IMG/VR virus record: IMGVR_UViG_3300025674_000003
Strand: one strand, 5' to 3'
From: an uncultured virus (IMG/VR IMGVR_UViG_3300025674_000003)
Taxonomy: Duplodnaviria > Heunggongvirae > Uroviricota > Caudoviricetes > Crassvirales
DNA: 64,000 nucleotides
In this document: positions 27,776 through 59,603 of the stretch, one piece after another
Position numbering within the stretch: the stretch's first letter is position 1
Layout of the letters: every line of letters starts with the position of its first letter
Notes under the pieces: generated by a model
The model's database searches: none
What the model was told of the DNA's origin: nothing
Seen by the model: only the letters and a program-made list of their open reading frames with translations
Position numbers and translations under genes: made by a program

Positions 27776-28237
27776 TTATATTACTTTATATTTAGTTCTA
27801 CCGTTTTCTTTATATGCTTTTAAGCATCTATTTCTATTATCTTCATCATTAACATAAGATACATGTATCCAATTTGGATTTGTGTCTGTGCCAAACTCCC
27901 ATATTAATTGATCAAAATTTAAGTTTTCTTTTATCCAATGATACATTTCTGCGTTGGTTTTATGTCCATAGACGTCGTCTAAGTCTATTGCTTGGCCTTT
28001 ACAGTGCTGAGATGTTTTTGATCCTCCTATTGCAGTATTTAGTTCTGCTGATCTAAAAAATGAATTTACTTTTATTGGTCCTCCAACCCATTCTCTAAGT
28101 GGTTCAAATATTTTAGACGCTGTTAAACCCATGGTTTCTACGTGAACTGGGCTAGGTGTATTATCTATTCCTTTACGCTTAGCTGTATTTGAGTGTATAG
28201 CTTCAGCATACGTTATATGATCACTTATCTTTTGCAT
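27776..28237 (-). CDS. Endolysin, peptidase M15A family
   Basis: FRS..LN.AIGGS..SQH..GQAID...WIHVS. Confidence 0.88.
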   Translation of the reverse strand: MQKISDHITYAEAIHSNTAKRKGIDNTPSPVHVETMGLTASKIFEPLREWVGGPIKVNSFFRSAELNTAIGGSKTSQHCKGQAIDLDDVYGHKTNAEMYHWIKENLNFDQLIWEFGTDTNPNWIHVSYVNDEDNRNRCLKAYKENGRTKYKVI

Positions 28238-28239
28238 AA

Positions 28240-29319: not shown

Positions 29320-29652
29320 TTAAAACTTGTTTGATTGTAGTTCATCTACTTTGTTAATAACTTTTTTTAATGTATCATCTGGTAATTTTAAAGACATACC
29401 ACCGTGTATTCTTAAAACTTCTTCGCCATTATTATATACGCAAATAGTTGGCAAATATTCTATATTTTCTTTAGTAAAATATTCTTTATGTTCACTCATA
29501 TAAAATGTATGAGTGTTAAAGCTTTTTAATTTTTTTAATGATATTTCTTTTTCTAATAAAAATTTTGCGCTGTATTGAACAATACTAATATCGTCTTTAT
29601 AGTTTTGTCCAAATGCAAAAGTGCTAAATAGTAATGCAATAATTAATCTCAT
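29320..29652 (-). CDS. Secreted thioredoxin-like-fold protein without CxxC
   Basis: Signal peptide; IEYLPTICVYNNGEEVLRI cis-Pro-type motif. Confidence 0.55.
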   Translation of the reverse strand: MRLIIALLFSTFAFGQNYKDDISIVQYSAKFLLEKEISLKKLKSFNTHTFYMSEHKEYFTKENIEYLPTICVYNNGEEVLRIHGGMSLKLPDDTLKKVINKVDELQSNKF

Positions 29653-29957
29653 CTTCTTTGTATTTCATAAAGACGCTGATCTAACTTATCTATCATTTGT
29701 TTTATTTCCTCAACGTCTTTTTCAATGTTATCAACTTGTTCAATAACTTTTTCCACGTTCGATCTAATCAATTCGTCTTTGTATTTAAATTCTAATGAAG
29801 TTATTTCTGGCTTTGGTTCTTCCATAGCTAAAGCTATATCAGATTTTAAAGTGAAATAAGTTGTAGATAATCCTACAACAAAACTTATAATTATACCTAT
29901 TGTTTTAACATCTAATGTAAATTTAGTATCTTCGCCTATTTGTGGTATTTTTGTCAT
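29649..29957 (-). CDS. Single-TM coiled-coil membrane protein
   Basis: TIGIIISFVVGLSTTYF followed by heptad repeats. Confidence 0.6.
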   Translation of the reverse strand: MTKIPQIGEDTKFTLDVKTIGIIISFVVGLSTTYFTLKSDIALAMEEPKPEITSLEFKYKDELIRSNVEKVIEQVDNIEKDVEEIKQMIDKLDQRLYEIQRR

Positions 29958-32900: not shown

Positions 32901-35900
32901 TTGAAAAGTCATTCTTCTTGAAAGAGTTTGTGAAAGAATAGATAATTTCTTTTTAAAATTTCTAAAATCTAAAGTTTCTATATTTGGTGATGATAATATT
33001 TCTCTTCTAACCTCTGCCGCTATTATAGCTGCTGGGTTTATCTCTTGAGAATAAGCTTTATATGTTTTTATCATTCCACCGGAGGCTACACTATAAGTTT
33101 TAAATGACTTTAGCTTTTTAAGTTCTTTAACTTCTTCGTCTGTTAAATACTTTTTACTTTCTAATTCTAAGCCTCTTTCAAGATCTCTTTTTTCTTGTTC
33201 TAATTGTTTTCTTATTGCAGGATCAGTTACTATTTTAAGCTTTTTATTAACAGCAATAGATGGGTCGTTTGCACTTAAAGCAAAATCACCTCCAACTGGT
33301 ACTCCTTCTATCAATATAGGTTGACCATCTTTATTTGAAAAACCAAAAACAGGATCAGTTAATAATGTTATTAATTCATCTTGATTTTTTTCAAACTCTT
33401 CTTTTTGTTCTTGTATTTCACTTTGACTAGTTGTTTCTATAGATGTAGATCTCTCATCTATTTCATCTGTAAATTTTTGACTAGTAACGTTACCAGTTCT
33501 AAGTGCAGTTTTCATTTTATTTCTTAACTGGCTATTTATCCAGCCGTTAAGATTATTGTTTTCTAATACAATTTCACCTTTAGAATTTTTATATCCTTTT
33601 TCGTCAAGCTTATTTAACGCATTATTAATTTCAGAAGAAGACAAACCTTTTTCTTTTAACTCTTTTCTTTTGTTTTCTCTTAATTGTAAAAATTCTTTAT
33701 TAAAGTTTCTAATGTGAGGTATTAAAGCAATAGCTGTTTCAGCTAACATGTCTTCTGCGCTATAATCAGGTAAATTACTATATAATACACTAGCCTTGTC
33801 TAATATAGGTTTTTCATATTCATTTAGAATATCATAAAGAACAGAATCTACACCCGTAGATTTACCCCATAAATTTTTATTATAAAAAGAATTTACTTTA
33901 GCTTTAAACTCTTCACTAGATATAGGTCTTTTAGTTTTTAAAGCAAACTTTTCGTCAAAAGTATAATTATCTTCTATTTCTTTTATTTCATCAGGTGTTG
34001 GTTCTCTATCAACAACAGGTTGTTTAGGCGCTTGTTTTTTGTTTTTATCTACAAATTTTTGTGATTCAGTTTCAAGAGCTTTAGTATCTACTTCTGCTCC
34101 TTGTTTAGCTACTTTGGATAAAGCTTTGTTTCTATCTGCTGTTAATATTCTAGCATTTATACTAGAGTTATAGTCTTTTATAAAATTATAAACATCTTTT
34201 GCTGAGTTAAATTTTATATCTTTTAATCCTAAAAACTGCAAAACTTGTCTTATTGTGTCTGCTATTTTAGTAAAAGTATCTGTTTCATATGTTACAGCGC
34301 CTACTGTGATAGCGTCTGAGTAAAGAGTTAAAACTTCTTCCCATTGATTACCAACAGCTTCAGCTACCTTTCTATCATATTCTTGTTTAGTTATAGTACC
34401 AGCTTTTAAATCAGCATCAAAGCCTTTTATAACATTATTATAAAAATTTATATAGCTAGTAAAATCAGATAAAAATTCATCTGGTAAAGCTTTTTCAAGA
34501 GACTCGTTGTTATCCAGTTTGTCTTGTATCTTCATTACTTCTGCTAATAAAGATTTTCCTAAAAGAACTTGTGCTTGTGGATTATTTCTTATTGTTTCAT
34601 ACATTACAGCATGTAAAAACTCATGTTCCTTTACTGTAACTTTACCATCTTTAGCTGCTTTTTCGTTATTTATTACTATATACTGCTGATCACCTCTTTG
34701 TATTGTTGTTCCATATTTACCAGCTGTAGATATAGCTTTTGCTTTTGTATAGCCTAATTCATTTACTAAAAAATCTACAACTTCATTTGTAGAATTAAAT
34801 TCATTCCAAGAGACGTTTTCTATTTTACCACTTTTTATAGCTTTTTTTATTATACCTGACTTTCTTTTTGTTATGTCATTATAATAAGCTGTTTTTATTT
34901 TTTCATCTAATGCTGCTATTCTAGCATCTGTTTCTGAGTGAAAAGAAGGATCTTCTGTTTTTCTTTGTTGTCTTAGTTTAGCTACTTCATTTACATCTCC
35001 TAGTATTTGAGTTGCAGCTTCAGCAGATAAATCTTGAGGCATTCTATTTATATTATTATCAAAAGCATTTATTTCTTCTAATAATTGATCAGCCTCTTGT
35101 TGAGTGTAAATATTTTGTGAAACTTGAGTTGCTAACAAATCTTTAACTGAATCTTTTTTATAAGCTAAAAAACTTAACGCATTAAATCTATCTATAGCAC
35201 TCATTCCAAGAAGTTGTCTAGCTGTTTGTTTTGCTAAATCAACAGTAACACCGGCGCCAGGTAACACAGCTCCAGCAAAGAAAGATAAAACACTAGTGTC
35301 AATAAAGTCTTGAAGACTCATTGTGTCTTTTAATATTTTTCTACCAGCTCTATCATTTACATTTTTATTAACAGCAAAAGTTTCACCTATTTGTTGCACG
35401 TTTTCTTGAAACATTTCTTTAAAACCTTCGCCACCTAAATTAATAAGCGTTCCAAGTTTTCCACTTCTAAAATAATCTATAAAGCCTTTTTTACCTTTTT
35501 TAGTATATTCTTGTATGGCGTTAGAAACAAAGTTTTTAGTTGTTAATTTTCCAAATATAGCATCTGTTGCTCTTGTTTGAGGTGATATTGGTGCTGTTAT
35601 CGCATACAATATACCTGTTTGTATAGATCCTATAGCAGCTAATTCTTTAGCTTCTTGATCATTTAATCCAGCTTTTCTAGCTTCAGCTAATGTGTTTTCA
35701 TATCCTCTAGAGAAACCTATAGTTGCTTGACCTATTATAGCATCAGACATTGTTCTCTTAATAGGAATAGATTTTAAAAATTTTCTTGTTTTACCTAGAA
35801 CACCTAAACCTTTTGTAAATCCTCCAACGGCTCTAATACCATTACCCATTCCTCTTGAAAGTGCTATTTGAACAATTAAATCACCTATAACTTGAGATCC

Positions 35901-40141: not shown

Positions 40142-41416
40142 TTAATAAGAAGATTCTTTGTACTCTGTAGATATGGCAAATAATTCATTATTACCAGAAT
40201 CTCCAGTGTTTGTTGCGGTAAATAAAACTTCTGCTGTATATCCTTTTATACCAGAAATAGATCCACCATAAACAACCTCACCTTGAGCAAATGCAGTAGA
40301 ATTAACTATGTTTGCAAAGTATTTATCTTCTTTTCTTTTAAATTCGTTTTTAAATAATTGACTTTCTAAATCATTTAAAGTAGTAGGCATTACATAAACA
40401 TTTATTGGAAGACCAGAATCTCCTGAGTTAGTTGATATACTTGTCATTGACCAGTTGGATCCACCTTCGTAATTTATTGTTTGAAAGTTTTTAACTAATG
40501 AAGGCTGTTTGTTAAATATAGTAGTAACAGTTGAGTTGTATTGTGTACCGTAAAAATTAGCTCTATTAACATTTGATGCATAGTGTAAATATATTCCTCC
40601 TGAATTTGTAGAATAAAAATTATTTTGAACACTAGCCATATTGTTTGGAGCATAACTATATCTACTTGACCAACCTTGAACTTGTTCGTCAAAACTTAAT
40701 GTTTCTACATCTATACCACTAGCTTTAGATTGTATAGAAACAACATAACATTTGTTGTGAATATCCCATCCGCCAACTACTCTACCATTGTTTAGAGTTG
40801 AAAATCTATCTCTAAAATAATCATACATACCATAAGCTGATATTTCTGTAATACCGTCCATAGAAAGCCTTAAAACAGCTCCCTGTGACGCGTCTGTAAA
40901 GTATTTTCTATAACCATAAACAGCAAAACTTTCTGGATTTGTACTTATACCAAACTCACCAGCATAAGGTGTTATAGCACCAATAACAACGTTAGATGCT
41001 GTTTGAACAGGTTGTCCTTCTTGAGTATATATAGCGTCTTTATCAATAAGAGCTCTATTAACTTTGTTTTCTTGAAATATAATTAAATTAGTATCTTCAG
41101 CGTAAAGTTTTTGTATAGAGCCTTTAGTTGGATCAACTGTTCTAGTTATGTCTTCACCAGAAGGAAACTGATTAGTTTGATTTATACCAGTTCTAGAGTT
41201 AAGTATTCCAGAGTATATAATAGAATTTCCTAAAGATTCTTGTAAATTTTGCTCTGCTCTTAAAAAAGCTCTTGGTGCTAGACCTGTTTGAACATTATTA
41301 TACCCGCCTTTTATTCTAGATTCTTCAATAAACCAGTTATAAGCAGTGTTTACATCTCCTTGTACTATTTTTTTTAAAACAAAGGTGTTATAGTATTTTA
41401 CTGGTGTTATAGCCAT
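40142..41416 (-). CDS. Tail stabilisation/hub protein, C-terminal part
   Basis: GSIQKLYAEDTNL, GISTNPESFA, KNFQTINYEG, KEDKYFANI. Confidence 0.65.
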   Translation of the reverse strand: MAITPVKYYNTFVLKKIVQGDVNTAYNWFIEESRIKGGYNNVQTGLAPRAFLRAEQNLQESLGNSIIYSGILNSRTGINQTNQFPSGEDITRTVDPTKGSIQKLYAEDTNLIIFQENKVNRALIDKDAIYTQEGQPVQTASNVVIGAITPYAGEFGISTNPESFAVYGYRKYFTDASQGAVLRLSMDGITEISAYGMYDYFRDRFSTLNNGRVVGGWDIHNKCYVVSIQSKASGIDVETLSFDEQVQGWSSRYSYAPNNMASVQNNFYSTNSGGIYLHYASNVNRANFYGTQYNSTVTTIFNKQPSLVKNFQTINYEGGSNWSMTSISTNSGDSGLPINVYVMPTTLNDLESQLFKNEFKRKEDKYFANIVNSTAFAQGEVVYGGSISGIKGYTAEVLFTATNTGDSGNNELFAISTEYKESSY

Positions 41417-41451: not shown

Positions 41452-44400
41452 CTATGCTGGTCCAACAAATTGTGATCCAAAATCAGTAGGATAGCCTGGA
41501 ACACTACCATTTGAATCAGCATAAAAAGGTGTTGTATTATTTGGGTTTGTTATACCTAAAGTTGTTCCTAAAGGTGCGTTTTGAGTTGTAGAATAAGTTA
41601 CGCTAAATGTACCAACAGTTGTTGCGTTTCCTGGAGTTTGTTGAAATTGCAAGTTAACTAAAGCGCAACCTGAATAATCATAACTACCATAGTTAGGCGT
41701 GTTTGTGTTTTTCATTCCTGGTCTTAATCCATTTTGCTTAGCAGTATTAAATTCACTTGTAGTTAGACCACCTGAAGCAGCTGTAAAAGGTTGTAATACA
41801 GCAAAAGTTACTGGAGCTGTCGCCATTCCAGCTTGAGGAGAAGAAGGTGGATTTGAGAAATTACTATTTGCCGTGGCATTTGGTATAAACGTATATGTAT
41901 TTCCTTGTGCGTCAGTACCACCTGTTGTATTATCTCCAAAACGTCCTCCCGCAATTGTTCTATGTTGTGAAGAAGAACTTTGAGTAGAACTTGTTATTTC
42001 TGCTTTTATATATAAATACACTGTATTTGGTGTCCAGTTTTGAATTTGATAATATTGATCTTGAGCAGCACCAGAAAATTGCGAAACTCCGTTAGAACTT
42101 CCACCAGCACCAGAATTATTATACATGTTTATTATAACACCTGTTCCTTGGTAAGCTCCTACATAGTATTCTATTTTAGCACTTGTTCCATTTGGTTGTT
42201 GAGTACTTTGAGCTCCTAAAGTATCAGTTAAATTCATATATATTTCATACTGATTACCTGGTTCATTTGCCCAGCCAGGGAATTGTCCATTTGCGTTTGG
42301 TTTAGCAGTGAGTGAGAAAAAAACTTGATCACCACTAGCACTAGTAGCTTGACCATCTTGATAAGTTGGAAAATTACTACTATTTTGATACGTGTTAAAA
42401 ACTTGAGATAAATTTAAAGGTGTTGATGTTTCTGTTATTGTTTGAGTAACACCAGTACCAGAATTAGTTTTTACCGCACTGTCTATTGTCCAACCAGATG
42501 TAAAATTTGAAGAAGAAAAAGTTATTTTTGTTGGCGAACTATCATTTAAACTGTTTGCTCTTGCTGAACCGTTTTCACCTGCCATTGATTGATTTGCTCC
42601 AGGGTTATTTGTAACTATACCTCCAGCTGATGATGTAACCGTAGGATAAACAACGGCTGGCGTGCATATTGGAGTTGTATTTTCTAACTGAATTATTGTT
42701 GATTGATCAACTTGAGTACCATCTATTTGAACAAATGTAAATGTAAATAAAAATTTACCTCTAGTAGCGACACTATCTGATTCAAACGTTGCTCCTGCGT
42801 AAAATCTATCATTTGTTTTTATAACGTAACTTCCAGTTTGAGCACCTGTTTCAACTGTAAATCTATTTGCTTGAGATGTACTTGAATCTAATTGACCTAT
42901 ATTAGGACCACTTGAAAAATAACTAAAGCATGTGAAGCCTGCTAAAGTAGTATTTGTTAAATTCTGACCACCAGCAGTTGGGAAAAAGTCTGTAGTTATT
43001 GCAACACCTGAAGCCATTGATTCAAAAAATCCATAACTAAAATTACTTAAACCTGTTATATTTGTGTTTTCATTTTCTATATCTAGATTTAATTCAGATA
43101 TTAAGCTAGATGTTGAAGATTCATAGAATAACTCTAACGGTGAAACATAAGGTGCTGTTTCGTAAACAGCTAGACCTAAGTCAGGTGAATAAGGAAAATT
43201 ACCACTACCTTGTGTAGGTATTGTATATTGACCTTCTTTTAAACCTACAGCTTTTTGAGTTGATATTTTAGCTATAAACGGTTTTGTTTCATAACTATAT
43301 ATTGAATAAAAGTTTATTTCTCCAACAGCAATTGTTGGAGGATTTACTGGTTGTAAACCTGGGAATAAATCTTGTATACCACCTACTAAATCAACTTGAT
43401 CAGAAGACGCTTCTGGATCTATTTGTTTATTAAAAGTAGAATAAGTGACTGTAGTAGAAGCTACTTCATTTATATTAGTAACTCTTGGCCACATAGCAAC
43501 ATCACTTGTAAATTGATTTTGCTGAGGCCCAACATCTTGTAAATTTCGAGGTACTTTATTTATATTATCATTAACTAAAGATATAAATCCTACTTCATTT
43601 TGTTCTTTTGTTTCGCCTTTTATAGGATAACCATTTATAATCCCGGGTAAATAAACATTGTAATAATCTTGTTGTTGTTGTTTTACCACAGATTTATAAA
43701 TATAAAAACCTAAAACATTTATATCGTAAGTTGCGTAAGTATTTATTTGACCTAATTTACTAGGTTCTGGTCTTGTTCCTGGTGTGTTATCAAATAAATA
43801 ATTTGTTGCAACTTCTTCTTTTGTAAAAAATTCAACACCCCTAACTCCATTAGAATCACTAATAGCTGTTACACTTGTGATTTCTGTATAATCTATATAT
43901 AATCCTTTCAACTTCTTTCCTACAGCATAATAATCAGCGTATGTAGAAGGAAAATCAGGAAATAAAGGTCTGTTTGTACTAGATGAAGCACCTGTATCAT
44001 ATTTGTATAGGTTTTCAGATGTATATAAGACTTCAAACTTTACAACATCACCAACCGGTATCCCTGTTGAAAAAGTTACTTGTACATAATTATTTGAATT
44101 AGCTATAGTATATGAAGTACTATCTTGTAGTATCCAACCATTACCGCTATCAACTAAAACTCTAAAAGTATTATCATTTGAATTAGCATCTGCATACAAT
44201 ATAGTTGTTGAAAAAACTGTTTGATTAGCAGTTGCTATTATACACTCTGTACCTAAACTTCTAAAATAAGCATATAATGCACTTGGTGCACTTGCAGTTT
44301 CTGTGTCTACTTCATAGTAATTACCTTGAGCATATGCTCCTGGATAACCAGATATACCTATATCACCTTCTGGTATTTGTTGTAAGTAATTTAAAGTAAG

Positions 44401-46386
44401 AGTATCACCCGTCCAAGGTTGAAGTGAATTGCTAAAACTTATTGGTTTGTAATCGTGATAAAAATTAGAACCAGGTTGAGGATCACCATTTGAATCTAAA
44501 ACACCATCATAATTAGATAATACAACATCAGTTTGCCTACCATATTTGTCAGACAAAACAATACCGACTTGATAATTTCTATTTTGTTTTACTGAATGCT
44601 GAGGATATTCTATAAACTGCTGAGCGCTTTTATCAGCAACACCTACATAGTAATCTAATCCATTTGGAGCACTATGACCTTCTAGGTAATTAGCATACAT
44701 TATTCTATTGCCGCTTGTTTCTTGAGCTAAAGCTTTAACAGGAACTTTGTCAAATACTCTAGTCGTTTGTATTGCTGGTAAAGTTGTTATAGGTATAGTT
44801 GATTGATAAGAGTATTGATAAATGTTAGTATTATTTAATGAGTTTATAAAACTAGAATCTACTTTTACTGTTTCAATAACTTGATATGCTTGAGTATCTG
44901 ACTGCTTGTATATTATGTCTATAGCTTTTACCTTATACTTATTTATTATATCAATACATGGTAACTCAATATTTAAAACAGCGTTGTTTATAGAGTTCTG
45001 CATAAACTCTACAACACTAGTTATAAAAGCTTGATTTTCATCATCATTAACAAACTCACCTTCTTGGTAAGGTATAAATACATCTTGACTAAATGGAGCT
45101 ATAGTTGAATATTCGTTATCATCAAATTTAAATCTATAAGAAAATCTAACAAATCTTTCTGATAAATAATCAGGATCTCCATTCCAACCAGTGTAATTAG
45201 TGTTTCTTAAAACTCTTACAGAGTAACCATCAACTGTAGCGCTAGTACCTGTCGTAGATATGGCATTTGTAGTATTGAATTTAACAAAAGCATTTGCATT
45301 AGGATTTGAAGAATCATAAGCATCTGATGTCCAAAATCTAGTTTCTGTTGTTAAATTTAAAAAACCTTGAGGATCAGGACTTGTTGTACTGTTTCTATAA
45401 CCAGCTGGTAAAACATCTGTACCGAGTTGATCATCACCAGCTCCAGAAGCCCATAAAAATTGACTTTTATAAATACTAGCCGAAGATCCAGCTGTACCTA
45501 TAATACCATTCCATTCAGCTAAAGTGGGTATTCTATGACCAACAGGAGCTAAACCTCTAGGATCTATAACAGCCCATTTGTTGTATAATAAACCATATGT
45601 TACACCATTACCATTATAATTAGCATAATAACACCATCTGCCTTGTTGATTTTGATCAGCTGTGGTCCAGTCTGCTATATTTTGAGCTTCAGGTATTGCA
45701 TCTCCATTTCTATATTTTTTTACAGCTAAATTTTCTTGAGATATTTTATATATACCTATTTCTACTACTGGAGGATCAGCAGCATCAGACATTGTTGATG
45801 GTTTTAATACTTGCTGAAAATTAGCATAATAAGAAGCTCCAGCTCTCATATTTATAAAAGATGGTGGAGAATAAGGAGCAAATTTAGCTACAGATATTTG
45901 ATCTTCATTAGTATAATAACCTAATGGTTTATCTACATTTATTTTTCTAGGTTGATTTCTATTGTCTGTAAAAAATAATTGGTTTTCTATTAAACTTATT
46001 CCAGACATGAAAAAATCATTATTACCAGAAAAATTTAAAAAACTACCATTTACTAATTCTGTTCTATTATTTGTTAATATGTTAACATAACCAATACTAC
46101 ACAAAGCGTTTAAAGGCGCGGGATCAGTTCCAAAATAATTAGTTCTAAAATAATATAATCTATTATTAGCTTCATCTTCGTAAACACCAATTATAATATG
46201 ACCACTAGCTGGTGTTACGCCTGTTGTTGAATTACCTAATATAGACTCAACAGCACCAACATCGCTATTTTCTGATCTAGATATAGCTATGTTTAAAGCA
46301 TCTCTATATTCGTTATTTGGAATTAGTCTTTCATCTAAGTCTTTATTCATTTTAGACTTAATGAAACTATTTTTAGCTTCTGCCAT
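41452..46386 (-). CDS. Tail stabilisation/hub protein, N-terminal part, with inserted Fib_succ_major-like domain
   Basis: KMNKDLDERL..NEYRDALN, LFFTDNRNQPRKIN, FSYRFKFDDNEYS; insert about 45202-45770. Confidence 0.7.
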   Translation of the reverse strand: MAEAKNSFIKSKMNKDLDERLIPNNEYRDALNIAISRSENSDVGAVESILGNSTTGVTPASGHIIIGVYEDEANNRLYYFRTNYFGTDPAPLNALCSIGYVNILTNNRTELVNGSFLNFSGNNDFFMSGISLIENQLFFTDNRNQPRKINVDKPLGYYTNEDQISVAKFAPYSPPSFINMRAGASYYANFQQVLKPSTMSDAADPPVVEIGIYKISQENLAVKKYRNGDAIPEAQNIADWTTADQNQQGRWCYYANYNGNGVTYGLLYNKWAVIDPRGLAPVGHRIPTLAEWNGIIGTAGSSASIYKSQFLWASGAGDDQLGTDVLPAGYRNSTTSPDPQGFLNLTTETRFWTSDAYDSSNPNANAFVKFNTTNAISTTGTSATVDGYSVRVLRNTNYTGWNGDPDYLSERFVRFSYRFKFDDNEYSTIAPFSQDVFIPYQEGEFVNDDENQAFITSVVEFMQNSINNAVLNIELPCIDIINKYKVKAIDIIYKQSDTQAYQVIETVKVDSSFINSLNNTNIYQYSYQSTIPITTLPAIQTTRVFDKVPVKALAQETSGNRIMYANYLEGHSAPNGLDYYVGVADKSAQQFIEYPQHSVKQNRNYQVGIVLSDKYGRQTDVVLSNYDGVLDSNGDPQPGSNFYHDYKPISFSNSLQPWTGDTLTLNYLQQIPEGDIGISGYPGAYAQGNYYEVDTETASAPSALYAYFRSLGTECIIATANQTVFSTTILYADANSNDNTFRVLVDSGNGWILQDSTSYTIANSNNYVQVTFSTGIPVGDVVKFEVLYTSENLYKYDTGASSSTNRPLFPDFPSTYADYYAVGKKLKGLYIDYTEITSVTAISDSNGVRGVEFFTKEEVATNYLFDNTPGTRPEPSKLGQINTYATYDINVLGFYIYKSVVKQQQQDYYNVYLPGIINGYPIKGETKEQNEVGFISLVNDNINKVPRNLQDVGPQQNQFTSDVAMWPRVTNINEVASTTVTYSTFNKQIDPEASSDQVDLVGGIQDLFPGLQPVNPPTIAVGEINFYSIYSYETKPFIAKISTQKAVGLKEGQYTIPTQGSGNFPYSPDLGLAVYETAPYVSPLELFYESSTSSLISELNLDIENENTNITGLSNFSYGFFESMASGVAITTDFFPTAGGQNLTNTTLAGFTCFSYFSSGPNIGQLDSSTSQANRFTVETGAQTGSYVIKTNDRFYAGATFESDSVATRGKFLFTFTFVQIDGTQVDQSTIIQLENTTPICTPAVVYPTVTSSAGGIVTNNPGANQSMAGENGSARANSLNDSSPTKITFSSSNFTSGWTIDSAVKTNSGTGVTQTITETSTPLNLSQVFNTYQNSSNFPTYQDGQATSASGDQVFFSLTAKPNANGQFPGWANEPGNQYEIYMNLTDTLGAQSTQQPNGTSAKIEYYVGAYQGTGVIINMYNNSGAGGSSNGVSQFSGAAQDQYYQIQNWTPNTVYLYIKAEITSSTQSSSSQHRTIAGGRFGDNTTGGTDAQGNTYTFIPNATANSNFSNPPSSPQAGMATAPVTFAVLQPFTAASGGLTTSEFNTAKQNGLRPGMKNTNTPNYGSYDYSGCALVNLQFQQTPGNATTVGTFSVTYSTTQNAPLGTTLGITNPNNTTPFYADSNGSVPGYPTDFGSQFVGPA

Positions 46387-48670: not shown

Positions 48671-49419
48671 AACTTTTTCTCTATAGATTTAAATATTTCT
48701 ACACCTTCATCTGTTTTAAAGAATGCAGCCATTGCAGAGTATGGATTTTCGTCAAATGGAACAGTCATTAGCTTTTTACCGTTTGATGCCCAGGTAAAGA
48801 ATCTTTGATCTTGAGATAAGTCTATTATATTGGCTTCAACAGCTTTAATAGCAAAGTTTCTTAACTCTACATTTTCATCATTAACTAGTTCTATAAATAA
48901 TTCGGGATTATTTCTAGCAAATATTAATAAATCTCTTTTAAGTTCTTTAGAACTCATTTCATTTACTCTTGAACCTACTTCAACTCTCATTATTGCTTCT
49001 GCCATGTTTATATCAACATTTCTAGCGGCATTTAAAGCGTCAACCTGTAAATTTAAAATATCTAATTCATCTACAGCAACCTCAACAGGATCAAATTCGT
49101 AATAACTTTTATTTCTTAACGGATGATAAAGAGATAATAATTTTTGAAGATTTTGTTTAGATTTTGGAACAGCTAATACACCGTCTCTAAACACAATATG
49201 ACCTAAAGTAGCTTCACCTTTTTGTTCATCTACAAATACAGAATTTTGATTTGTAGCATATCTTATTTCTCTTTGTTCTTTTTTATCTTCGTCAAAATAT
49301 AAAAGAGCGTGTTTTCTTGTATGTTTTGATGGGATAGTAAAAGTCAATGGTTCTATTCCATTAGAAAGAATGTATCTTCTATCTTTTATTTCCCAAGTTT
49401 CTTTTTTTTCTTTTTTCAT
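48664..49419 (-). CDS. Hypothetical protein of the head module
   Basis: 251-aa ORF after the major capsid gene. Confidence 0.7.
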   Translation of the reverse strand: MKKEKKETWEIKDRRYILSNGIEPLTFTIPSKHTRKHALLYFDEDKKEQREIRYATNQNSVFVDEQKGEATLGHIVFRDGVLAVPKSKQNLQKLLSLYHPLRNKSYYEFDPVEVAVDELDILNLQVDALNAARNVDINMAEAIMRVEVGSRVNEMSSKELKRDLLIFARNNPELFIELVNDENVELRNFAIKAVEANIIDLSQDQRFFTWASNGKKLMTVPFDENPYSAMAAFFKTDEGVEIFKSIEKKFK

Positions 49420-49490: not shown

Positions 49491-50930
49491 TTATAATCCT
49501 TTAAACAATACAAAGTTGTTAGCAGCTTGTGTTACTAAACATCTTTCAGATAGGAAGTTTACTTCCATAGCATCTAGATCAGATGTAAAAGCACCACCAG
49601 CAGAACCAGTTAACCATGATTTCATTCTTCTGTCATCACCTTGAGAAGCTCTATATCTTACGTGTAAGAAAGGTCTTCTAATGTTAGTACCTAAGATTTG
49701 ATCATATACTGTTGAAGTTCCAGCAGGAATTAAAACACCTTCGATTGATGAAGGTCCAACCATTCCACCTCTTGTAGAAGCGTCATTTAAGTATTTCCAG
49801 TCAGTTTTGTAGAAATCATAAGATCCTCTACGGAAACCTGAAAATCCAAGGTTAAGAGCCATTTCTTCAGAATTTTCAAACAAACCAAAAGCAGTACCTC
49901 CAGCGTATCCGCCAGAAATGCTAGCTAGCATGTCATCAAAGTCAAGAGCAGTTTGTCTCTGTAAGAAAAGCATGTTTTCTTCAATAGCACCTTGAGTGTC
50001 TAAGTTTTTAAGAATTGCATCAAAAGCATCAATTCCAGCAGCAGCAGTAAAACCAGTTTGTACATTACCTCTATCATTGATAGCAGCAAATAAACCTTGA
50101 GTACCACCTAATCCAGCAGGAATAGCAGCGTTATTTTTTAATTCTCCTTCAACCATAGCCATTTCTAGGTAATCTTCAAAACGTAGTCTTGTTTCAGACT
50201 CTGCTTTTAAATACCATAAATAACCAGAAGTTCCGTCTTCAGTTGCAACTTCTACCCAACCGATTTGTGCCATATCAGAACCATTTACAACGTATTTGTT
50301 TCTAATAATGATTGGTGAGTTAGAATATTGCTTAAATGAAGGATCAACACTAATATAGCCGTCTGTTGAAGTTGCACTATAATTAGGTGTTGAAGAACCT
50401 TTAGCGTATTCAGAACCATATACAAATACTTTTACTTTACCAGTTAAACCAGCAAGAGCTAAAGTATTAGCAGTATAAGGTAGAGCAGTAATTTGTCCTA
50501 CACCAGCTCCACCAGGAACAGTAGCGCTAACATAACATTTTGCTTCTACTCCATTGTCATCTAAAACTACGATAGTAGCTCCTACAGATATAACGTTAGT
50601 TACATCAGCAGCTGTACCTGTAAAATTGATAACATTACTTGCACCGTAAGCAGGTGTAAGACCAGTATAAGCTATATGTAGTCTGTTTTGCTCAGACCAA
50701 ATTACTTGATCAGAGGTCATAGGCATTTCAGCCCCTACCATACGTAAAAATCCGCCTAACGTTCTGTTTCCATAACGCTCTACTTCTTGTTCGTATACCT
50801 CAGGTAGGTATTGTTGCGCGAAATCTACAAAATCAGCAGCAGCTTTGTCAGTCCACTGTAGATAATTGCTATTTAAGACTTCTTGCTTTTGAGATGGGAC
50901 AATTGACCCAAATTGTGGTGTTAAAGCCAT
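49491..50930 (-). CDS. Major capsid protein
   Basis: 479 aa after portal and scaffold, followed by a hairpin; QQYLPE..E.E.ERYG, LGFSGFRRG. Confidence 0.85.
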   Translation of the reverse strand: MALTPQFGSIVPSQKQEVLNSNYLQWTDKAAADFVDFAQQYLPEVYEQEVERYGNRTLGGFLRMVGAEMPMTSDQVIWSEQNRLHIAYTGLTPAYGASNVINFTGTAADVTNVISVGATIVVLDDNGVEAKCYVSATVPGGAGVGQITALPYTANTLALAGLTGKVKVFVYGSEYAKGSSTPNYSATSTDGYISVDPSFKQYSNSPIIIRNKYVVNGSDMAQIGWVEVATEDGTSGYLWYLKAESETRLRFEDYLEMAMVEGELKNNAAIPAGLGGTQGLFAAINDRGNVQTGFTAAAGIDAFDAILKNLDTQGAIEENMLFLQRQTALDFDDMLASISGGYAGGTAFGLFENSEEMALNLGFSGFRRGSYDFYKTDWKYLNDASTRGGMVGPSSIEGVLIPAGTSTVYDQILGTNIRRPFLHVRYRASQGDDRRMKSWLTGSAGGAFTSDLDAMEVNFLSERCLVTQAANNFVLFKGL

Positions 50931-54593: not shown

Positions 54594-56810
54594 TTATCTT
54601 ATTATTTTTGAACTAAATCCTTTATTGTCATATTTTTTAAAACCAAGGTTTTTAACTTCTAATTTTCTTTTAAAAACTGGCGTGTAAAGATTTTTATTAC
54701 AAGCCATTATTGCTAAACCTGAACTAATAGAAGCATCGTGTTTTGTTCTATCATTTATATCAAATCTAGACCAATCTTCTAAAGTTTTTTGAAAATATAC
54801 GTTTCCATAACCTTCGTCTAATTTACCTACATAATTTTCAATATAGGATTCTATAGCAGCCGCGTGAGCTTGTTTTATATCTTGACTTGAATTAGGTATT
54901 CCACCTATTTCTTTTTCTGTTACAGATAATTTCATATATACTTTATCTGGTCTATTCATAGAATAACCTCTATAACCTCTTCTTTTAAAATGATATAAAA
55001 GTCTAGGTTTATTATTTTCTGCTAATATAGGCATTCCATAAAACACACAAGCCATAAGAACATCTTCGAAAAATATCTCAGCAGTCTGTGGTCTTGCTAT
55101 GTATTCTAAAAAAAACATACTATTAGGCACATCTTCCATTGAAAACTTTGTTAATCCGTGAAGTGATCCTTTAGAACCACGCGCGTCAACAGTACCTGAT
55201 ATGTCATATGGATCACAACCAAAAGAGCCACAATGTTCATTTCCTGGGTATTTTAATCCATTTTTAATTATTACACGATTTTGTAAATTTAAAGGTGGAA
55301 CCCAAGTTACACTAAATCTACCTGAATCATTAGGAACAAATAAAACCTTAGTATCTTTAACACCATTTTGCCATTGAAACGATCCTTTTGTAACAAAAGT
55401 GTTTGTTCTAAAATCTTCGTTATAATCTATTTGTTCGTATATTTTAGTTAAGTTAAATAAAGATTGTTTAGCTTCGTCTCTAAACGCATGTTGTTCTGTT
55501 CTTGGAAACTGTCTATAAAATTCATTTAAACCTTCTTGATCTTTTTTTAAACCATCAACTTCGTTTTGCCAATATTCTAGTACACCTATTTTTATTTTTC
55601 TTCCGTGCGGACCCTCTGTATTTTCGATTGGAGTTTCGAAGACAGGTAAGCCATAAGAATCAATGTATCCTTCGTAGTTCCATTCCATAGGTATGAACAA
55701 AGAATATAATCCTGAGCGAGTCTCTCCATTGGCGTTTCTTTCTTTGACGTTCGAATCATAATATAGTTTTTTAAAGTTATTACCACCTTTGTCAAGTGCA
55801 TTACTGGTTGATCCCATCATACACTTACCTATAATTCTACCACCTAATCTTAGCGTGGTTTTTGTAACCCTCCAGTTGTTGAGGATGTTGTTCGGCTTCT
55901 CCCATTTACCGCTTTCATCATGGACGAGGAGTTTAAGTTTCTCCCCATCGTAGGAGTTGTCACCTGTATTCTTCCAGTCGATTGTGGTGTCCAATCCCTG
56001 TAATTCGTCCTCGGTTTCGTCGTAGGCAGCGGTGAGCTTTCTACGGGTGAACTTTGAGGCTGGTACACGGTAGGCAAGCTCGGTCTTTGGGCGGTCCATA
56101 CCGTCCTGGGTCGGCTTGAAAAAGAAGGGGTAATTAACCGATATGGGTACCACCTTGTCTGTGAACATCTTTTTAGCATCAGGACCGGACTTTGATAATA
56201 TACCATATCTAGAGTCAGATGATATGGTTGCCAAGTTAACCACCTCTCCTGACGCCATAAAGGAAAACCCAGAACGTCTGTTCTTAAGGTAGCACAGTCC
56301 GTAACATCTATCATCGGCTTTACAAGCTTCCCAGAAAATGAAGAATAATCTATTTGACTCCCGAAAGTCTGGTGCCCCGACATCAATCTTACTCCACTGC
56401 AAGTACATGTAATGAGTACCAGTAATATAAGTAGGAATGTCTTTGTTATAAAACCAAAAACCTTTCTCCCTACGGGTAAACTCATTATCGATGTAATCAT
56501 ACCACTTTTCTTTAAAATCTAGTGGATATTGTTTCCAATCAAAAGTAGATTTAATTCTATCTAATTCTTTTGGATATTCAAATTGTGTCCACTTATTGTT
56601 ATCAAACTTATATATATTTTCTTTTTTTGGTAAAGCTATTTTTAGGTTTTGTATCTCATACACTTGACCTATTTTACCAGTTTTACTTATAACTACAACA
56701 TCGTGTTCTTCGTTATAACCATATTCCCAACTATTGCTTTTGTTATTTCTTTTTAAAACTTTACTTGGAATATGATCTTCTAGTATTTTATATAAAGTTT
56801 GTTTATACAT
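54594..56810 (-). CDS. terL: Terminase large subunit
   Basis: KNRRSGFS Walker A, LLVHDESGKW Walker B, GCDPYD nuclease motif; ATG 56810. Confidence 0.92.
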   Translation of the reverse strand: MYKQTLYKILEDHIPSKVLKRNNKSNSWEYGYNEEHDVVVISKTGKIGQVYEIQNLKIALPKKENIYKFDNNKWTQFEYPKELDRIKSTFDWKQYPLDFKEKWYDYIDNEFTRREKGFWFYNKDIPTYITGTHYMYLQWSKIDVGAPDFRESNRLFFIFWEACKADDRCYGLCYLKNRRSGFSFMASGEVVNLATISSDSRYGILSKSGPDAKKMFTDKVVPISVNYPFFFKPTQDGMDRPKTELAYRVPASKFTRRKLTAAYDETEDELQGLDTTIDWKNTGDNSYDGEKLKLLVHDESGKWEKPNNILNNWRVTKTTLRLGGRIIGKCMMGSTSNALDKGGNNFKKLYYDSNVKERNANGETRSGLYSLFIPMEWNYEGYIDSYGLPVFETPIENTEGPHGRKIKIGVLEYWQNEVDGLKKDQEGLNEFYRQFPRTEQHAFRDEAKQSLFNLTKIYEQIDYNEDFRTNTFVTKGSFQWQNGVKDTKVLFVPNDSGRFSVTWVPPLNLQNRVIIKNGLKYPGNEHCGSFGCDPYDISGTVDARGSKGSLHGLTKFSMEDVPNSMFFLEYIARPQTAEIFFEDVLMACVFYGMPILAENNKPRLLYHFKRRGYRGYSMNRPDKVYMKLSVTEKEIGGIPNSSQDIKQAHAAAIESYIENYVGKLDEGYGNVYFQKTLEDWSRFDINDRTKHDASISSGLAIMACNKNLYTPVFKRKLEVKNLGFKKYDNKGFSSKIIR
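55850..56500 (-). CDS. Candidate overprinted lipoprotein in the +1 frame of terL
   Basis: 216 open codons; RK..K + FLLILLVLITC signal; coincides with a local GC rise. Confidence 0.5.
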   Translation of the reverse strand: MITSIMSLPVGRKVFGFITKTFLLILLVLITCTCSGVRLMSGHQTFGSQIDYSSFSGKLVKPMIDVTDCATLRTDVLGFPLWRQERWLTWQPYHLTLDMVYYQSPVLMLKRCSQTRWYPYRLITPSFSSRPRTVWTAQRPSLPTVYQPQSSPVESSPLPTTKPRTNYRDWTPQSTGRIQVTTPTMGRNLNSSSMMKAVNGRSRTTSSTTGGLQKPR

Positions 56811-57084
56811 TTTTAGATCTACCTTCAGCAAAACCAGCAAAAGTTCTTTCTTTTTTAACTTCTTTTGGTTTTTCGTTTAACATATCCTCTTCTTCTTGTA
56901 AACGTTGTAATATTTCAAAAGCATCAAATATTGCTAATTTTTTTGTTGCTGCAGCATTTTTAAGTCTGTCTGCAGATATATCATCGTCTGAATCTACAAT
57001 AGGTTCTTTAGCCACCTTTATAAGCTCTTCAACAGCTACGCGCCCAGCTTGGATTATATTCTTCTTCGTTTCCTTTGTGCTCAT
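56803..57084 (-). CDS. Putative terminase small subunit
   Basis: Small helical protein overlapping the terL start. Confidence 0.55.
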   Translation of the reverse strand: MSTKETKKNIIQAGRVAVEELIKVAKEPIVDSDDDISADRLKNAAATKKLAIFDAFEILQRLQEEEDMLNEKPKEVKKERTFAGFAEGRSKNV

Positions 57085-57634
57085 ATTTAATTACAATATC
57101 ATTTGATTTCATACAATAAACTCTTTCATTTTCAATAATAAAATCCCATTCGCTGTTAGGTGTAAAACCCACAACATCACCAGGATTAATATTAAGCGCT
57201 TCTAATGAGTTATTACTATATTTTAGTATACCTATAAGGGCTTGTTCTTTTTTGTTGCTTAATTTATCTTTATTTATTATCGGTTTAACAAAACATCTAT
57301 CACCAAACGAGTGATAACCATTATTGTTTTTATAAAGATATATTTGATCTAAGCTACAAAAATACAAATCATTTTTAAAATATGATCTGCTTTTTTTCTT
57401 AACACCTTTCATACCGTAAAATGTTCTAAACACATTTTGATGTACTATTATTAAATCACCTTTTTTTATAGGTGTTTTAAAAGCTTTAGGTGTTTCTATA
57501 ACCTCGGCTATTCTATTAACAAACTTCCAGTTTTCAACCTTAGTATTTAATACTAATTCTTTATCATCTACTTTTATGCTATTAGAATATTCTTTACCAA
57601 ATGGTTTTACTATAAAATCATATAGACTTTTCAT
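57029..57634 (-). CDS. GroES-like (possibly two-domain) protein
   Basis: IKKGDLIIVH; FGDRCFVKP...NPGDVVGF...YCMKSNDI. Confidence 0.5.
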   Translation of the reverse strand: MKSLYDFIVKPFGKEYSNSIKVDDKELVLNTKVENWKFVNRIAEVIETPKAFKTPIKKGDLIIVHQNVFRTFYGMKGVKKKSRSYFKNDLYFCSLDQIYLYKNNNGYHSFGDRCFVKPIINKDKLSNKKEQALIGILKYSNNSLEALNINPGDVVGFTPNSEWDFIIENERVYCMKSNDIVIKYEHKGNEEEYNPSWARSC

Positions 57635-57861
57635 TAATACTCTAAATCGTACTCAACTGATATAGCCATGTTAGAATTAAACTTCTTCCATGGCAATACC
57701 TCGTTGTTTTTCTTTATGTGAATATTATAGGAATTATCGTTTTCGTCAAGAAGTATATGTGATATTTCGTGACCACCGTAAACTTGTTGTCCTACTGAAT
57801 AATGCATTGCGTCGTTTTTATAATCAGATCCAATGCTTATTTTTCTAATATTACTCAACAT
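57634..57861 (-). CDS. Hypothetical protein
   Basis: 75-aa ORF. Confidence 0.7.
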   Translation of the reverse strand: MLSNIRKISIGSDYKNDAMHYSVGQQVYGGHEISHILLDENDNSYNIHIKKNNEVLPWKKFNSNMAISVEYDLEY

Positions 57862-58099
57862 CTTGTTTAGTAATTTCAGATATTTTACCAGTTTGTAAAT
57901 CTATGTTAACAGAACCATAAGTTTTTTCTAACTGTTCTTTAGTTTCTTGTATTTCATCGCTTAATTTTTTAATAACGCTATGCGTATTTATTTTTTCAAC
58001 ATCTAAAATACCTAAATGTTTCAACAATTCATTTAACTTATTTTGTTGTTCATTAACAAGTTCTAATTCTTCTTTTTTTATTTTTTTTGCTTTCGCCAT
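57851..58099 (-). CDS. Hypothetical coiled-coil protein
   Basis: 82-aa ORF ending YGSVNIDLQTG. Confidence 0.7.
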   Translation of the reverse strand: MAKAKKIKKEELELVNEQQNKLNELLKHLGILDVEKINTHSVIKKLSDEIQETKEQLEKTYGSVNIDLQTGKISEITKQDVE

Positions 58100-58132
58100 G
58101 ATTTAATTAAATTTGATTAATATATTTTTTTA

Positions 58133-58693
58133 TTATTTACATACAATTATGTCACCAGCTCCAACAGTGTTTAGAGCAGTAACATAGTCAACAGCCACGG
58201 GTAGTATGCTACCAGCTGGAACGTTTTTAAAAGTTATAGCTTGTGCAGCTACAGGAACACCATCGTTTACGGCTGTAATTTGTAGAGTAGCATTTCCACC
58301 GCCACCACTTACTGTTACAATATCATTTACATTGTAACCTGATCCTGCAGCGTTTATTGCTACAGCAGTTATTACGTTAGAAGTTACTGTTGTGTTTACA
58401 GTTAAACCTAATCCATCACCAGATGTTGTTGTTGCAACACCTGTACCATTACTGTAACCACTGCCTCCATTTGTGATTGAAAGAGCTTTTACAGAACTTA
58501 AATTAGTACCAGGTAATATAACACTAACATCACCGCTTACACCAACGTAAAGTACAGAACTATTTAAAAAAGTTCCTAATGTTCCGGTTTGGTTTTCAAA
58601 AACCCAAGCTGGTAAAGGATTTGGGGCTCCTACTAAACCCGTTAAAGGCATTGCTTTACCTACAATACCATCATTAGTTATAAATTTTGACAT
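58133..58693 (-). CDS. Virion structural / decoration protein
   Basis: ITNGGSGY and AAGSGY repeats; G/T/V-rich. Confidence 0.6.
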   Translation of the reverse strand: MSKFITNDGIVGKAMPLTGLVGAPNPLPAWVFENQTGTLGTFLNSSVLYVGVSGDVSVILPGTNLSSVKALSITNGGSGYSNGTGVATTTSGDGLGLTVNTTVTSNVITAVAINAAGSGYNVNDIVTVSGGGGNATLQITAVNDGVPVAAQAITFKNVPAGSILPVAVDYVTALNTVGAGDIIVCK

Positions 58694-58698
58694 TTTTT

Positions 58699-59163
58699 TT
58701 ATTTTTTACTTATTGTTTTAAATTTTTCTGCACCTCGTGAACCAAAATAAGCCACGTAAACTGTAATTAAAAGAGATTTTAATAGATCAACCCAACCGCC
58801 ATCAACATCAAACTGTATATTAGAGCTTTCAAGAACTATTAAAATTATTAAAGATATAGTTAAAAATATAAGAGTCATAGGGCGTGTGTTTTTAGACAAC
58901 CATGAATCTGATTTCATATCACTATCCCAACGCTTAGATATTTCTTGCATTTCTACCATGTCTTGCTCTAATAACTTTAAAGCTTTTTCTTTATCTTCTG
59001 GTGGTAAAATTACAGGATCTTCTTTTTTTATTAAGTTTTTAACTACACCTAATAAGCCTTGATCTGGTAAAACATCAGATATACCATCAACTAGCTTAGG
59101 CGCAGTTCCTAATAAAAACTGACCGACTTTTGTATCTTTAAACTTCTTTTTATTATCTGGCAT
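58699..59163 (-). CDS. Holin (3TM / GTA-holin-like)
   Basis: SDSWLSKNTRP, hydrophobic helices, AYFGSRGAEK. Confidence 0.7.
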   Translation of the reverse strand: MPDNKKKFKDTKVGQFLLGTAPKLVDGISDVLPDQGLLGVVKNLIKKEDPVILPPEDKEKALKLLEQDMVEMQEISKRWDSDMKSDSWLSKNTRPMTLIFLTISLIILIVLESSNIQFDVDGGWVDLLKSLLITVYVAYFGSRGAEKFKTISKK

Positions 59164-59603
59164 TATTTTTTAATTACCTTTAGTATTGATTGATAAATTT
59201 TATTTATATCGAATGTATTTTTTGCTAAAGATACAGAATTTTTATTTATATCTTCGTAAGCTTTTACAGACGACTTACTAAGTTTTAAATGAGCAGCGTG
59301 TGATTTATTTATTAAATTAATATTCTCAACAGCTTTCTGTATTTTATTAGCGTATTCTTTTTGAGCTTTAACTATTTCACTAGTGTCATAAGGTTCATAA
59401 ATTACACGCGAGTTATCGTTTGTATCTTTAGTTGTCTCGAATGCAGAATAAGCAAAAACAATAGCTTCTGTTATCATACCTATTGTTAATAATAATGAGC
59501 CATATGGCCAGTGTTGAATTTTAGCAAGAGCTCCTAAAATAACGACTGCAGCTCCGAGCCCGTAGAGCATATTAGTAAAGTCTAATTTTAAATTTTTTAA
59601 CAT
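59163..59603 (-). CDS. gldL: GldL/PorL-like two-TM protein
   Basis: YGLGAAVVILGALAKIQHW...IGMITEAIVFAYSAFE matches the GldL N-terminal TM domain. Confidence 0.85.
   Translation of the reverse strand: MLKNLKLDFTNMLYGLGAAVVILGALAKIQHWPYGSLLLTIGMITEAIVFAYSAFETTKDTNDNSRVIYEPYDTSEIVKAQKEYANKIQKAVENINLINKSHAAHLKLSKSSVKAYEDINKNSVSLAKNTFDINKIYQSILKVIKK

Follow-up and report, generated by a model that had tools for sequence, protein, structure and literature searches.

According to the available part of PMC6139136, outer-membrane spanins (o-spanins) are lipoproteins that may be proline-rich and unstructured, and phage lipoprotein genes are rare. The same part gives [LVI][ASTVI][GAS]C as the consensus lipobox of o-spanins, records that off-consensus boxes such as AWAC can work, finds extra periplasmic cysteines in approximately 96% of two-component spanins, and lists 31 genomes with a lipoprotein but without a linked inner-membrane spanin (i-spanin). 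Here we analyzed a stretch of 64,000 nucleotides (nt) from an uncultured virus (IMG/VR record IMGVR_UViG_3300025674_000003), hereafter the window, in which the large terminase gene, terL, carries two further open reading frames (ORFs) in its +1 frame. As judged from sequence comparisons, the longer of them, the lipoprotein-like ORF A, is almost certainly kept by selection, which acts on its stop-free frame, its start, a hydrophobic helix, one cysteine, and a hydrophilic, disordered remainder. The shorter, ORF B, lies closer to the 3' end of terL. A literature search, in which few subscription papers were covered, did not uncover any earlier description of nested genes within the terL of such phages.

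An overprinted lipoprotein-like gene in terL

The window is a phage genome with a GC content of 31.7%, and its late genes, including those for holin, GroES, TerL, portal, and major structural protein, lie on the minus strand. The features of the host gene and ORF A were as follows.

54594–56810, minus strand: terL, large terminase of 738 amino acids (aa), the host frame (phrog_6681, E 4.5e-163).
55850–56500, minus strand: ORF A, overprinted lipoprotein-like gene of 216 aa with an ATG start, in the +1 frame of terL codons 104–320.
56402–56500, minus strand: predicted signal peptide of ORF A (residues 1–33), with a basic n-region and a hydrophobic h-region; the selected core is at 56434–56414.
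56399–56401, minus strand: Cys34, the likely lipidated residue (T33-C34-S35-G36), as suggested by its conservation in open genes.
55853–56140, minus strand: tail of ORF A (approximately residues 121–216), rich in S, T, P, and R, with few acidic residues, and disordered as judged from composition and model.

The first-pass annotation, made from the letters of the window, had described 216 open codons in the +1 frame of terL at 55850–56500 and a GC count of 124/240 at 55921–56160; the frame is present as described, and our recount gave the same figure. The GC content of the 200-nt windows flanking this patch was 0.24–0.31, and the rise sits at the third codon positions of terL, with a third-position GC content (GC3) of 0.64 in codons 211–320 vs 0.13–0.14 in the flanks. 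When the TerL residues were held fixed, the +1 frame over codons 104–320 was stop-free in 0 of 20,000 draws under the codon usage of the flanks (mean 12.8 stops) and in 5 of 20,000 under that of the GC-rich patch itself (mean 6.7 stops), and the open frame is therefore not expected by chance. The cause of the patch would be the make-up of the ORF A tail (S+T 0.30, P 0.10, K+R 0.17, and D+E 0.03). Beneath ORF A, the terminase frame encodes LKNRRSGFS (TerL residues 175–183) and LLVHDESGKW (residues 294–303), which we take to be Walker A-like and Walker B-like motifs, respectively.

Clade 1, the set of close terminases, consisted of that of the window and the best 80 of 657 matches (76–99% identical). 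Over codons 104–291, the +1 frame was open in 53 of these 81 genes, contained at least four stops in 22 (closed), and was intermediate or cut in 6. A-ending Leu, Ile, and Val codons occupied 0 of 777 stop-making sites in the open genes, a value that is zero by definition of the group, and 62% of 599 harmless sites, the same share as in the flanks. The synonymous identity among the open genes was 0.49–0.60, and the open state has therefore outlived heavy divergence, with no recent sweep. The ORF A start codon was ATG in 50 of the 53 open homologues and ACG in 3. Among lineages with the ORF end at codon 292 (n = 18), GC3 over codons 293–319 was 0.28, compared with 0.69 among those with the end at codons 320–322 (n = 34); that is, the GC rise stops at each lineage's own ORF end. 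The hydrophobic fraction of the tail stretch was 0.18–0.19 in open frames vs 0.44 in closed ones, with S, T, and P raised in the former. ORF A ranges from 186 to 220 aa among the open lineages, and its protein identity (46–55%) is not conserved beyond what TerL forces, which indicates that selection keeps a hydrophilic, basic, and disordered make-up rather than a sequence. On the TerL trees, the open and closed states are scattered, with 16 changes on the C-terminal tree and 11 on the overlap tree; all trees in this study were quick trees or FastTree trees, and L070 and L047, respectively, were removed from these two as too short. Three loci (L021, L023, and L024) have ACG for ATG at terL codon 104, a frame open to codon 292, and a modest GC3, which suggests a non-AUG or TTG start, or early decay.

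The leader is also selected. Leu at terL codons 126, 127, 129, 130, and 132 was present in 92–100% of the 53 open genes vs 32–73% of the 22 closed ones, and the corresponding figures were 53/53 vs 27% for Cys34, 100% vs 23% for Thr at position −1, and 94% vs 18% for Ser at +2. In the AlphaFold model, the sole helix spans residues 9–35, the predicted local distance difference test score (pLDDT) is below 50 from residue 36, and the overall pLDDT is 41.5. Cys69 and Cys112 are invariant in 42/42 genes, yet are largely forced by Met codons of TerL.

Overall, the real overlapping gene proposed in the first-pass annotation is supported by the open-frame counts, the selected leader, the GC content that follows the ORF end, and the simulation. 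Both comparisons that it had suggested agree: the frame is open in 53/81 terL homologues with the Leu core and Cys34 kept, and at synonymous sites stop-making codons are avoided. Its leader and cysteine were borne out, but the conserved residue is Cys34 (I/T-C-T-C-S-G) and not Cys32 of the LITC box that it had named; Cys32 is forced by TerL Met-Tyr, and Ser takes its place in three listed loci (L354, L393, and L408) while Cys34 stays. It had rightly called the lipobox non-canonical, Thr being at −1 in the window.

Searches of Pfam and PHROG with ORF A found no family match, and the best score in an Atlas search was 0.80, under the useful level. Four of 10 listed sequencing runs were mapped, all as contigs, from which frame, strand, start, and level are not readable; RNA-run contigs cover the ORF A/ORF B region, and a rise in depth over it also occurs in the two runs that are not on record as RNA. 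A promoter and terminator scan of 55300–58200 was uninformative (16 sigma-70-like sites vs 13.1 ± 4.2 expected, and zero terminators).

Alternation with a free-standing lipoprotein

A free-standing lipoprotein, lip1, was first met in the complete closed genome G002; it has 145 aa, a V-S-S-C box, an aromatic middle, and a basic tail rich in S, T, P, and N. It is absent from the window and from G003. The two free lipoprotein genes were located as follows.

68104–68541 of G002: lip1 of related phages, in an Atlas cluster of 1017 viral hypothetical proteins.
40419–41036 of G036: lip2, 205 aa, built like lip1.

Among the 24 lip1-bearing records searched, 4 had no scoreable ATPase region, and all of the 20 with a scoreable terL, 15 of them in clade 1, lacked an intact ORF A. 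A lip1 profile run over 48 long records gave two hits, both closed for ORF A. In records that were not reached through the lipoprotein but via the neighboring transmembrane (TM)-coiled-coil gene or terL, none of 20 open records had lip1 or lip2, whereas 9 of 10 closed or truncated ones did (Fisher p 7e-7, without correction for the tree). For part of this set, most of the query alignment was drawn from loci with the lipoprotein; it nevertheless returned 15 open records. Among near-complete records alone, the free gene was present in none of the 10 open ones and in 6 of the 8 that were closed or truncated (p 0.0015). Ten independent contrasts on a quick tree of 44 clade-1 rows gave 9.6 concordant and 0 opposite (p about 0.002), a conservative result because G111 was scored as without the free gene and was later found to carry it; an earlier, smaller contrast test gave 5/5 concordant (p 0.06). 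The alternation table leaves out G098, G032, G033, G034, and G048, where the cluster is cut, G062, whose record does not cover it, and G077, which has a broken terL frame.

The tails of ORF A and the free lipoprotein match in make-up (S+T 0.31 and 0.30, P 0.13 and 0.15, and D+E 0.02 and 0.00, respectively). Three records, G011, G005, and G111, hold the free gene together with an ORF A stub whose leader is intact, which suggests the state expected of ORF A decay in progress. The first-pass annotation had named stops in homologues, together with a grouping of the GC-rich patch with another lineage, as evidence against a gene. Stops do occur in 22/81 close homologues, but these do not group as a lineage, and 9/10 readable closed or truncated clusters carry the free lipoprotein.

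A small basic signal-peptide gene, present in 3/4 closed complete genomes, was considered as the true counterpart and rejected: it occurs in the open records G098, G100, and G101, and 7 cluster loci of closed records do not have it. Small free lipoproteins of 50–68 aa, unrelated to lip1 by scans, lie off the lysis cluster at G066 50389–50595, G075 13264–13443, and G088 945–1097 (plus strand).

Range and origin of ORF A

The ORF A frame was open in 0/79 sister and 0/55 distant terminases, and the 26 outgroup terminases with a GC3 of at least 0.5 were all closed. ORF A is thus open in clades 1 and 2 only, a narrower range than that of its host frame, as looked for in an overprinted gene. When 1.84 billion representatives were searched with a profile, 151 hits were obtained, including a group with a different leader; the 32 hits inspected and 64 with the motif all resemble the ORF A frame or TerL frameshift chimeras, the library being one without context.

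Clade 2 was assembled from 120 pattern-scan loci, from which 48 with too little DNA, one duplicate, and L229 (broken terL frame) were taken out, leaving 70; its terminases are 65–69% identical to the TerL of the window. The ORF A frame was open in 55/70 and cut at codons 220–277 in 15/70. In this clade, which was not selected for openness, stop-making codons stood at 5/599 sites vs 105/163 harmless sites. ORF A starts approximately 14 codons upstream in clade 2, the clade-1 cysteine is gone, and a box reading (I/T)-G-(S/L)-C lies at codon 121. With Ser at −1 in 80% of the 70 genes, this box is near-canonical, although Gly at −2 is off consensus; the Ser is unforced and needs TTC in an AT-rich gene. 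The two clades use different leaders, each with a cysteine 32–34 residues from the start. On a quick tree of 47 rows, clades 1 and 2 were sisters (support 98), and the group that lacks the ORF fell outside them. The simplest reading is that ORF A arose once, on their common stem, and that its signal peptide shifted later; two separate origins are possible.

A probable second overprinted gene

The first-pass annotation had noted that the same frame reopens at 55592–55801, and this was confirmed. The features of ORF B were as follows.

55592–55759, minus strand: ORF B, with a length of 55 aa if counted from the likely start and 69 aa if counted from an upstream ATG at 55801, in the +1 frame of terL codons 351–406.
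55738–55679, minus strand: conserved core of ORF B, ExxMxRLxxDYxLCSYLWNG, common to clades 1 and 2.

The ORF B frame was stop-free in 81/81 clade 1 genes (codons 340–396) and 69/69 clade 2 genes (codons 345–391), while codons 351–392 were open in 17/81 sister and 2/56 distant genes. An ATG was present within codons 349–355 in all 150 genes of the two clades, moving among three codons, and in 56/81 sister genes; 19 of the 150 would be expected to lack it if the lineages were independent, which they are not. The four-fold codons GGA367, CCT374, and CCT389 are frozen, whereas first positions, which are silent in the +1 frame, vary. The window of lowest third-position entropy in terL coincides with ORF B in clades 1 and 2 and not in the sister clade. 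ORF B is independent of ORF A because it survives where ORF A is lost. We regard it, on these codon patterns, as very probably a real second overprinted gene, better conserved than ORF A.

RNA structure was considered behind this conservation and rejected (consensus energy −3.25, with 38 of 100 codon-column shuffles as low; 40 rows, both clades). The AlphaFold model of ORF B is a single helix at residues 10–54 (mean pLDDT 70.8). Pfam and PHROG searches returned no family, no free-standing counterpart was found in 24 records, and a profile search gave 39 hits with lengths of 25–125 only, all to this frame or to TerL chimeras like those of ORF A. A tentative suggestion is that ORF B folds into a short helix and, late in infection, uses an M-L-Y-C-W face to bind some protein of the phage or the host.

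Lysis cluster and proposed role of ORF A

In relatives, the free lipoprotein adjoins a TM-coiled-coil gene, and this slot is empty in the window. The lysis-related features were located as follows.

29649–29957, minus strand: TM plus acidic coiled-coil gene, 102 aa, with i-spanin-like topology, a candidate partner (periplasmic part with K+R 12, D+E 17, and no Cys).
27776–29652, minus strand: rest of the envelope/lysis cluster, comprising a 110-aa signal-peptide protein, a 359-aa signal-peptide protein, and an M15 endolysin (PF08291, E 1e-16).
58699–59163, minus strand: holin (phrog_3427, E 1.3e-17).
48672–49130 of G082 and 44798–45268 of G083, minus strand: u-spanin-like genes.

The 110-aa protein gave a weak thioredoxin-like hit, and the 359-aa protein is probably outer-membrane barrel-like, with no family hit in Pfam and PHROG. 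Both the free gene and the TM-coiled-coil gene were seen at 18 loci, and at 13 of these they overlap; at 6/25 loci, the free gene is situated between endolysin and holin. The coiled coil is acidic, and the chains of both lipoproteins are basic. In 2 of 6 sister genomes scanned, genes resembling unimolecular spanins (u-spanins), with a lipobox and a C-terminal helix, directly follow the holin and endolysin.

We propose that ORF A arose when the terL half encoding the ATPase was overprinted, in an ancestor that the two marine phage clades have in common. Probably, the late terL message would serve for its translation, and the product would be exported and receive its lipid on Cys34, which would give a membrane-anchored chain of approximately 180 residues with a net charge of approximately +15. 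In a lineage with the free lipoprotein, ORF A would decay from its 3' end, and its third positions would drift back to A/T; the distribution of the two genes gives good reason to expect that ORF A does the job of the unrelated free lipoprotein of the same design and decays where that gene is held. The job they share might be the outer-membrane step of lysis, in which the product would either pair with the TM-coiled-coil protein in the manner of an o-spanin or serve as a tethered polycation. This assignment is about evenly balanced; it is made because the free gene sits with lysis genes, the charges are opposite, and o-spanins may be proline-rich, unstructured lipoproteins. For the whole, we lean slightly toward a reading in which a late, basic, disordered ORF A lipoprotein replaces the lysis-cluster lipoprotein and probably acts on the outer membrane. 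In a more speculative version, which we hold only tentatively, a lysis lipoprotein was invented de novo in the terL ATPase with an older i-spanin-like partner 26 kb off, had its signal peptide redrawn between clades, was repeatedly swapped for free lipoproteins, and functions by anchor, charge, and disorder, with ORF B indispensable to the whole group.

Several observations weigh against replacement of a lysis lipoprotein by ORF A. The two proteins have no sequence likeness, and the middle of ORF A is far less aromatic (W+Y 0.12 vs 0.35 in the free lipoprotein). The o-spanin consensus lipobox is not matched, as the window and clade 1 read (I/T)-C-T-C or L-(I/T)-(I/T)-C, with Thr or Ile at −1, and the T-C-S|G of ORF A, with a cut after Ser35, would suit signal peptidase I too. 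In clade 2, Leu is at −1 in 20% of the 70 genes, and the cysteine is forced by TerL Met-Cys and by the search pattern. The TM-coiled-coil protein has no periplasmic Cys, lip1 has none beyond the lipidated one, and G065, G066, and G067 have no TM-coiled-coil homologue above threshold. The free gene is missing from G157 (closed, with ORF B also broken and a long branch) and from G075, a clade 2 record in which ORF A is cut at codon 220. Among genomes outside the clade, G123 and G088 have a TM-coiled-coil gene but neither of the two lipoproteins, and scans of G084, G085, and G086 showed no lysis lipoprotein. Finally, 10 of the open records were read at the cluster only or as partial records, and the free gene can lie elsewhere, as in G111.

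An unlikely alternative is that ORF A is interchangeable with the free lipoprotein in a different job, namely superinfection exclusion or envelope protection, by receptor masking or by keeping the infected cell intact. The cluster does contain barrel-like and thioredoxin-like exported proteins, which are non-standard lysis genes, G123 and G088 manage with neither protein, and ORF A is dispensable and variable in length (186–220 aa). Set against this are the position of the free gene (between endolysin and holin in 6/25 loci, overlapping the i-spanin-like gene in 13/18), the u-spanin-like gene that fills the lysis cluster in G082 and G083, and timing, since superinfection exclusion usually acts early and terL is a late gene. 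For the spanin-like or exclusion lipoprotein of the first-pass annotation, alternation with a lipoprotein of the endolysin/holin cluster speaks indirectly; ORF A departs from a textbook Rz1 in its nesting, the distance of 26 kb, and its lipobox. Also improbable is a real ORF A that does not match the free lipoprotein in function: the two would exclude each other because they are harmful together or follow the range of hosts, or the ORF A product would be anchored or secreted without a lipid and serve a separate purpose. The lack of sequence likeness, the different middle, the non-canonical lipobox, and the three records in which the free gene stands alongside a stub of ORF A, so that the leader at least can coexist with it, favor this reading; the likeness in overall design and tail make-up, the choice of Cys over Tyr, Phe, or Ser in 53/53 genes, and the second, near-canonical leader in clade 2 disfavor it.

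It is very unlikely that the selected trait is an open frame for ribosome traffic or for a TerL fusion by programmed frameshift, with no separate protein. The lack of any extra conservation in the +1 protein (46–55% vs 54–57% for the closed frame read through stops) and the start of the stop-free stretch before the ATG in many lineages fit such a trait, but open genes have their own ATG in 50/53 cases, the helix and Cys are selected, the selected amino-acid make-up ends at each lineage's stop, the state alternates with a lipoprotein gene, and the TerL/ORF chimeras in the database change frame at many points, as indel errors would. A recombined GC-rich patch that opens the frame by chance, raised as the alternative in the first-pass annotation, was rejected on the simulation, outgroup GC3, ORF-end GC3, and stop-site codons, and we assign it a negligible probability. 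The state is patchy on the tree, and GC3 and openness correlate; nevertheless, the patch's own codon usage gave only 5/20,000 open frames, 0/26 equally GC-rich sister genes are open, harmless A-ending codons persist, and open and closed genes (as in the pair L009/L036) share 92–97% TerL identity in the region, where the states form no clades (11 changes).

Host and neighboring genes

TerL of the window was 32–45% identical to those of cultured phages of Flavobacterium, Cellulophaga, Maribacter, and Tenacibaculum and 63.5% identical to that of one freshwater record in a comparison of 87 records. The host would be flavobacterial because TerL matches phages of these genera, and both ORF A clades are probably marine phages with hosts in the Flavobacteriia. 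A search of solved structures with the TerL sequence found no match.

A 93-aa helical gene, likely TerS, lies directly before terL (56803–57084, minus strand). In Elemovirus, Panino, and phi40:1, the annotated terL is approximately 140 aa longer at the N-terminus and the 93-aa gene is absent, and a fusion of the two is therefore suggested. The window also carries GroEL-like (2501–4054) and GroES (57029–57634) genes, and a 105-codon ORF antisense to the former (3129–3446, plus strand), with matches in 7 other records, is probably a shadow frame. The cluster of TM-coiled-coil, thioredoxin-like, barrel-like, and M15 endolysin genes (27776–29957, minus strand) is conserved, and TM-coiled-coil relatives also occur in records of 110–180 kb without this terL. 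Beside the holin, a GldL-like protein with the N-terminal domain of a motor subunit of gliding and the type IX secretion system (59163–59603, minus strand; PF22827, E 1.8e-23) gave a weak PHROG hit to 'Rz-like spanin' (E 4e-4); of 24 records, the window and G001 were the only ones to have it.

In five records, a nested ORF of approximately 120 codons with an I-S-L-C motif lies on the same strand as a longer gene, probably nrdA, and nrdA of the window has an open second frame of 131 codons (26670–27065, plus strand); these may represent another overprint. The nested ORFs were located as follows.

2357–2719 and 68758–69081 of G003, minus strand: nested I-S-L-C ORF.
32660–33022 of G063: nested I-S-L-C ORF.
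33565–33927 of G066: nested I-S-L-C ORF.
44378–44740 of G067: nested I-S-L-C ORF.
1500–1862 of G077: nested I-S-L-C ORF.

Comparison with known systems

De novo genes rarely have a natural functional control, and ORF A alternates with an ordinary, unrelated gene built along the same lines, as at least 10 independent contrasts show; this alternation predicts the function of ORF A and makes equivalence testable by swapping. ORF A might also explain the passage of 'spanin-less' marine flavobacterial phages through the outer membrane. The overprinting occurs in a genome of 60–70 kb without size pressure, it places hidden codon constraints on terL, a standard marker gene, in this abundant group, and both ORFs were missed by annotation pipelines.

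Like the lambda Rz1-type o-spanins, as characterized in the part of PMC6139136 consulted, ORF A is lipoprotein-like, proline-rich, unstructured, and out of frame in another gene; the genome likewise holds an i-spanin-like TM-coiled-coil gene, which the free counterpart of ORF A overlaps. Unlike the Rz1 type, which lies in or beside the i-spanin gene, ORF A lies in terL, 26 kb from the TM-coiled-coil candidate, while the free lipoprotein shows the expected linkage (13/18). Its mature chain has approximately 180 aa vs 40 in lambda Rz1, its lipobox is off consensus, and it has no Pfam or PHROG match. ORF A may be o-spanin-like in action, but we do not class it as an o-spanin because its lipobox and gene linkage differ. 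A u-spanin combines a lipoprotein signal with a TM helix at its C-terminus, whereas the C-terminal half of ORF A is hydrophilic and disordered. With lip1 and lip2, ORF A shares the signal and Cys, the aromatic middle, the basic disordered tail rich in S, T, P, and N, and the alternation across the tree; the free proteins are non-homologous to it, have a canonical x-S-C lipobox, are shorter (138–150 aa, and 205 aa for lip2), and lie in the endolysin cluster.

The disruptin gp28 of phiKT is likewise a cationic phage product, proposed in the available part of 10.1101/515445 to breach the outer membrane without a spanin. It is described there as an amphipathic helix of 56 aa, whereas ORF A, longer by a factor of four, begins with a leader and is disordered, with no helix after residue 35; ORF B is closer to gp28 in length and in its predicted helix, although its conserved core does not have a strongly cationic character. 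De novo embedded single-gene lysis (sgl) genes of leviviruses and overprinted viral accessory genes, insofar as the parts of PMC7693330 and PMC8227390 at hand cover them, also arose in an alternative frame of an essential, conserved gene and show a restricted range and a disorder-promoting make-up. These known cases lie in small, size-limited RNA or single-stranded DNA genomes, in contrast to a tailed phage of 60–70 kb, and the terL case differs from them in its two stacked genes and its non-homologous free-standing alternative. What is new here is that ORF A alternates with a free lipoprotein and that ORF B accompanies it as a second gene.

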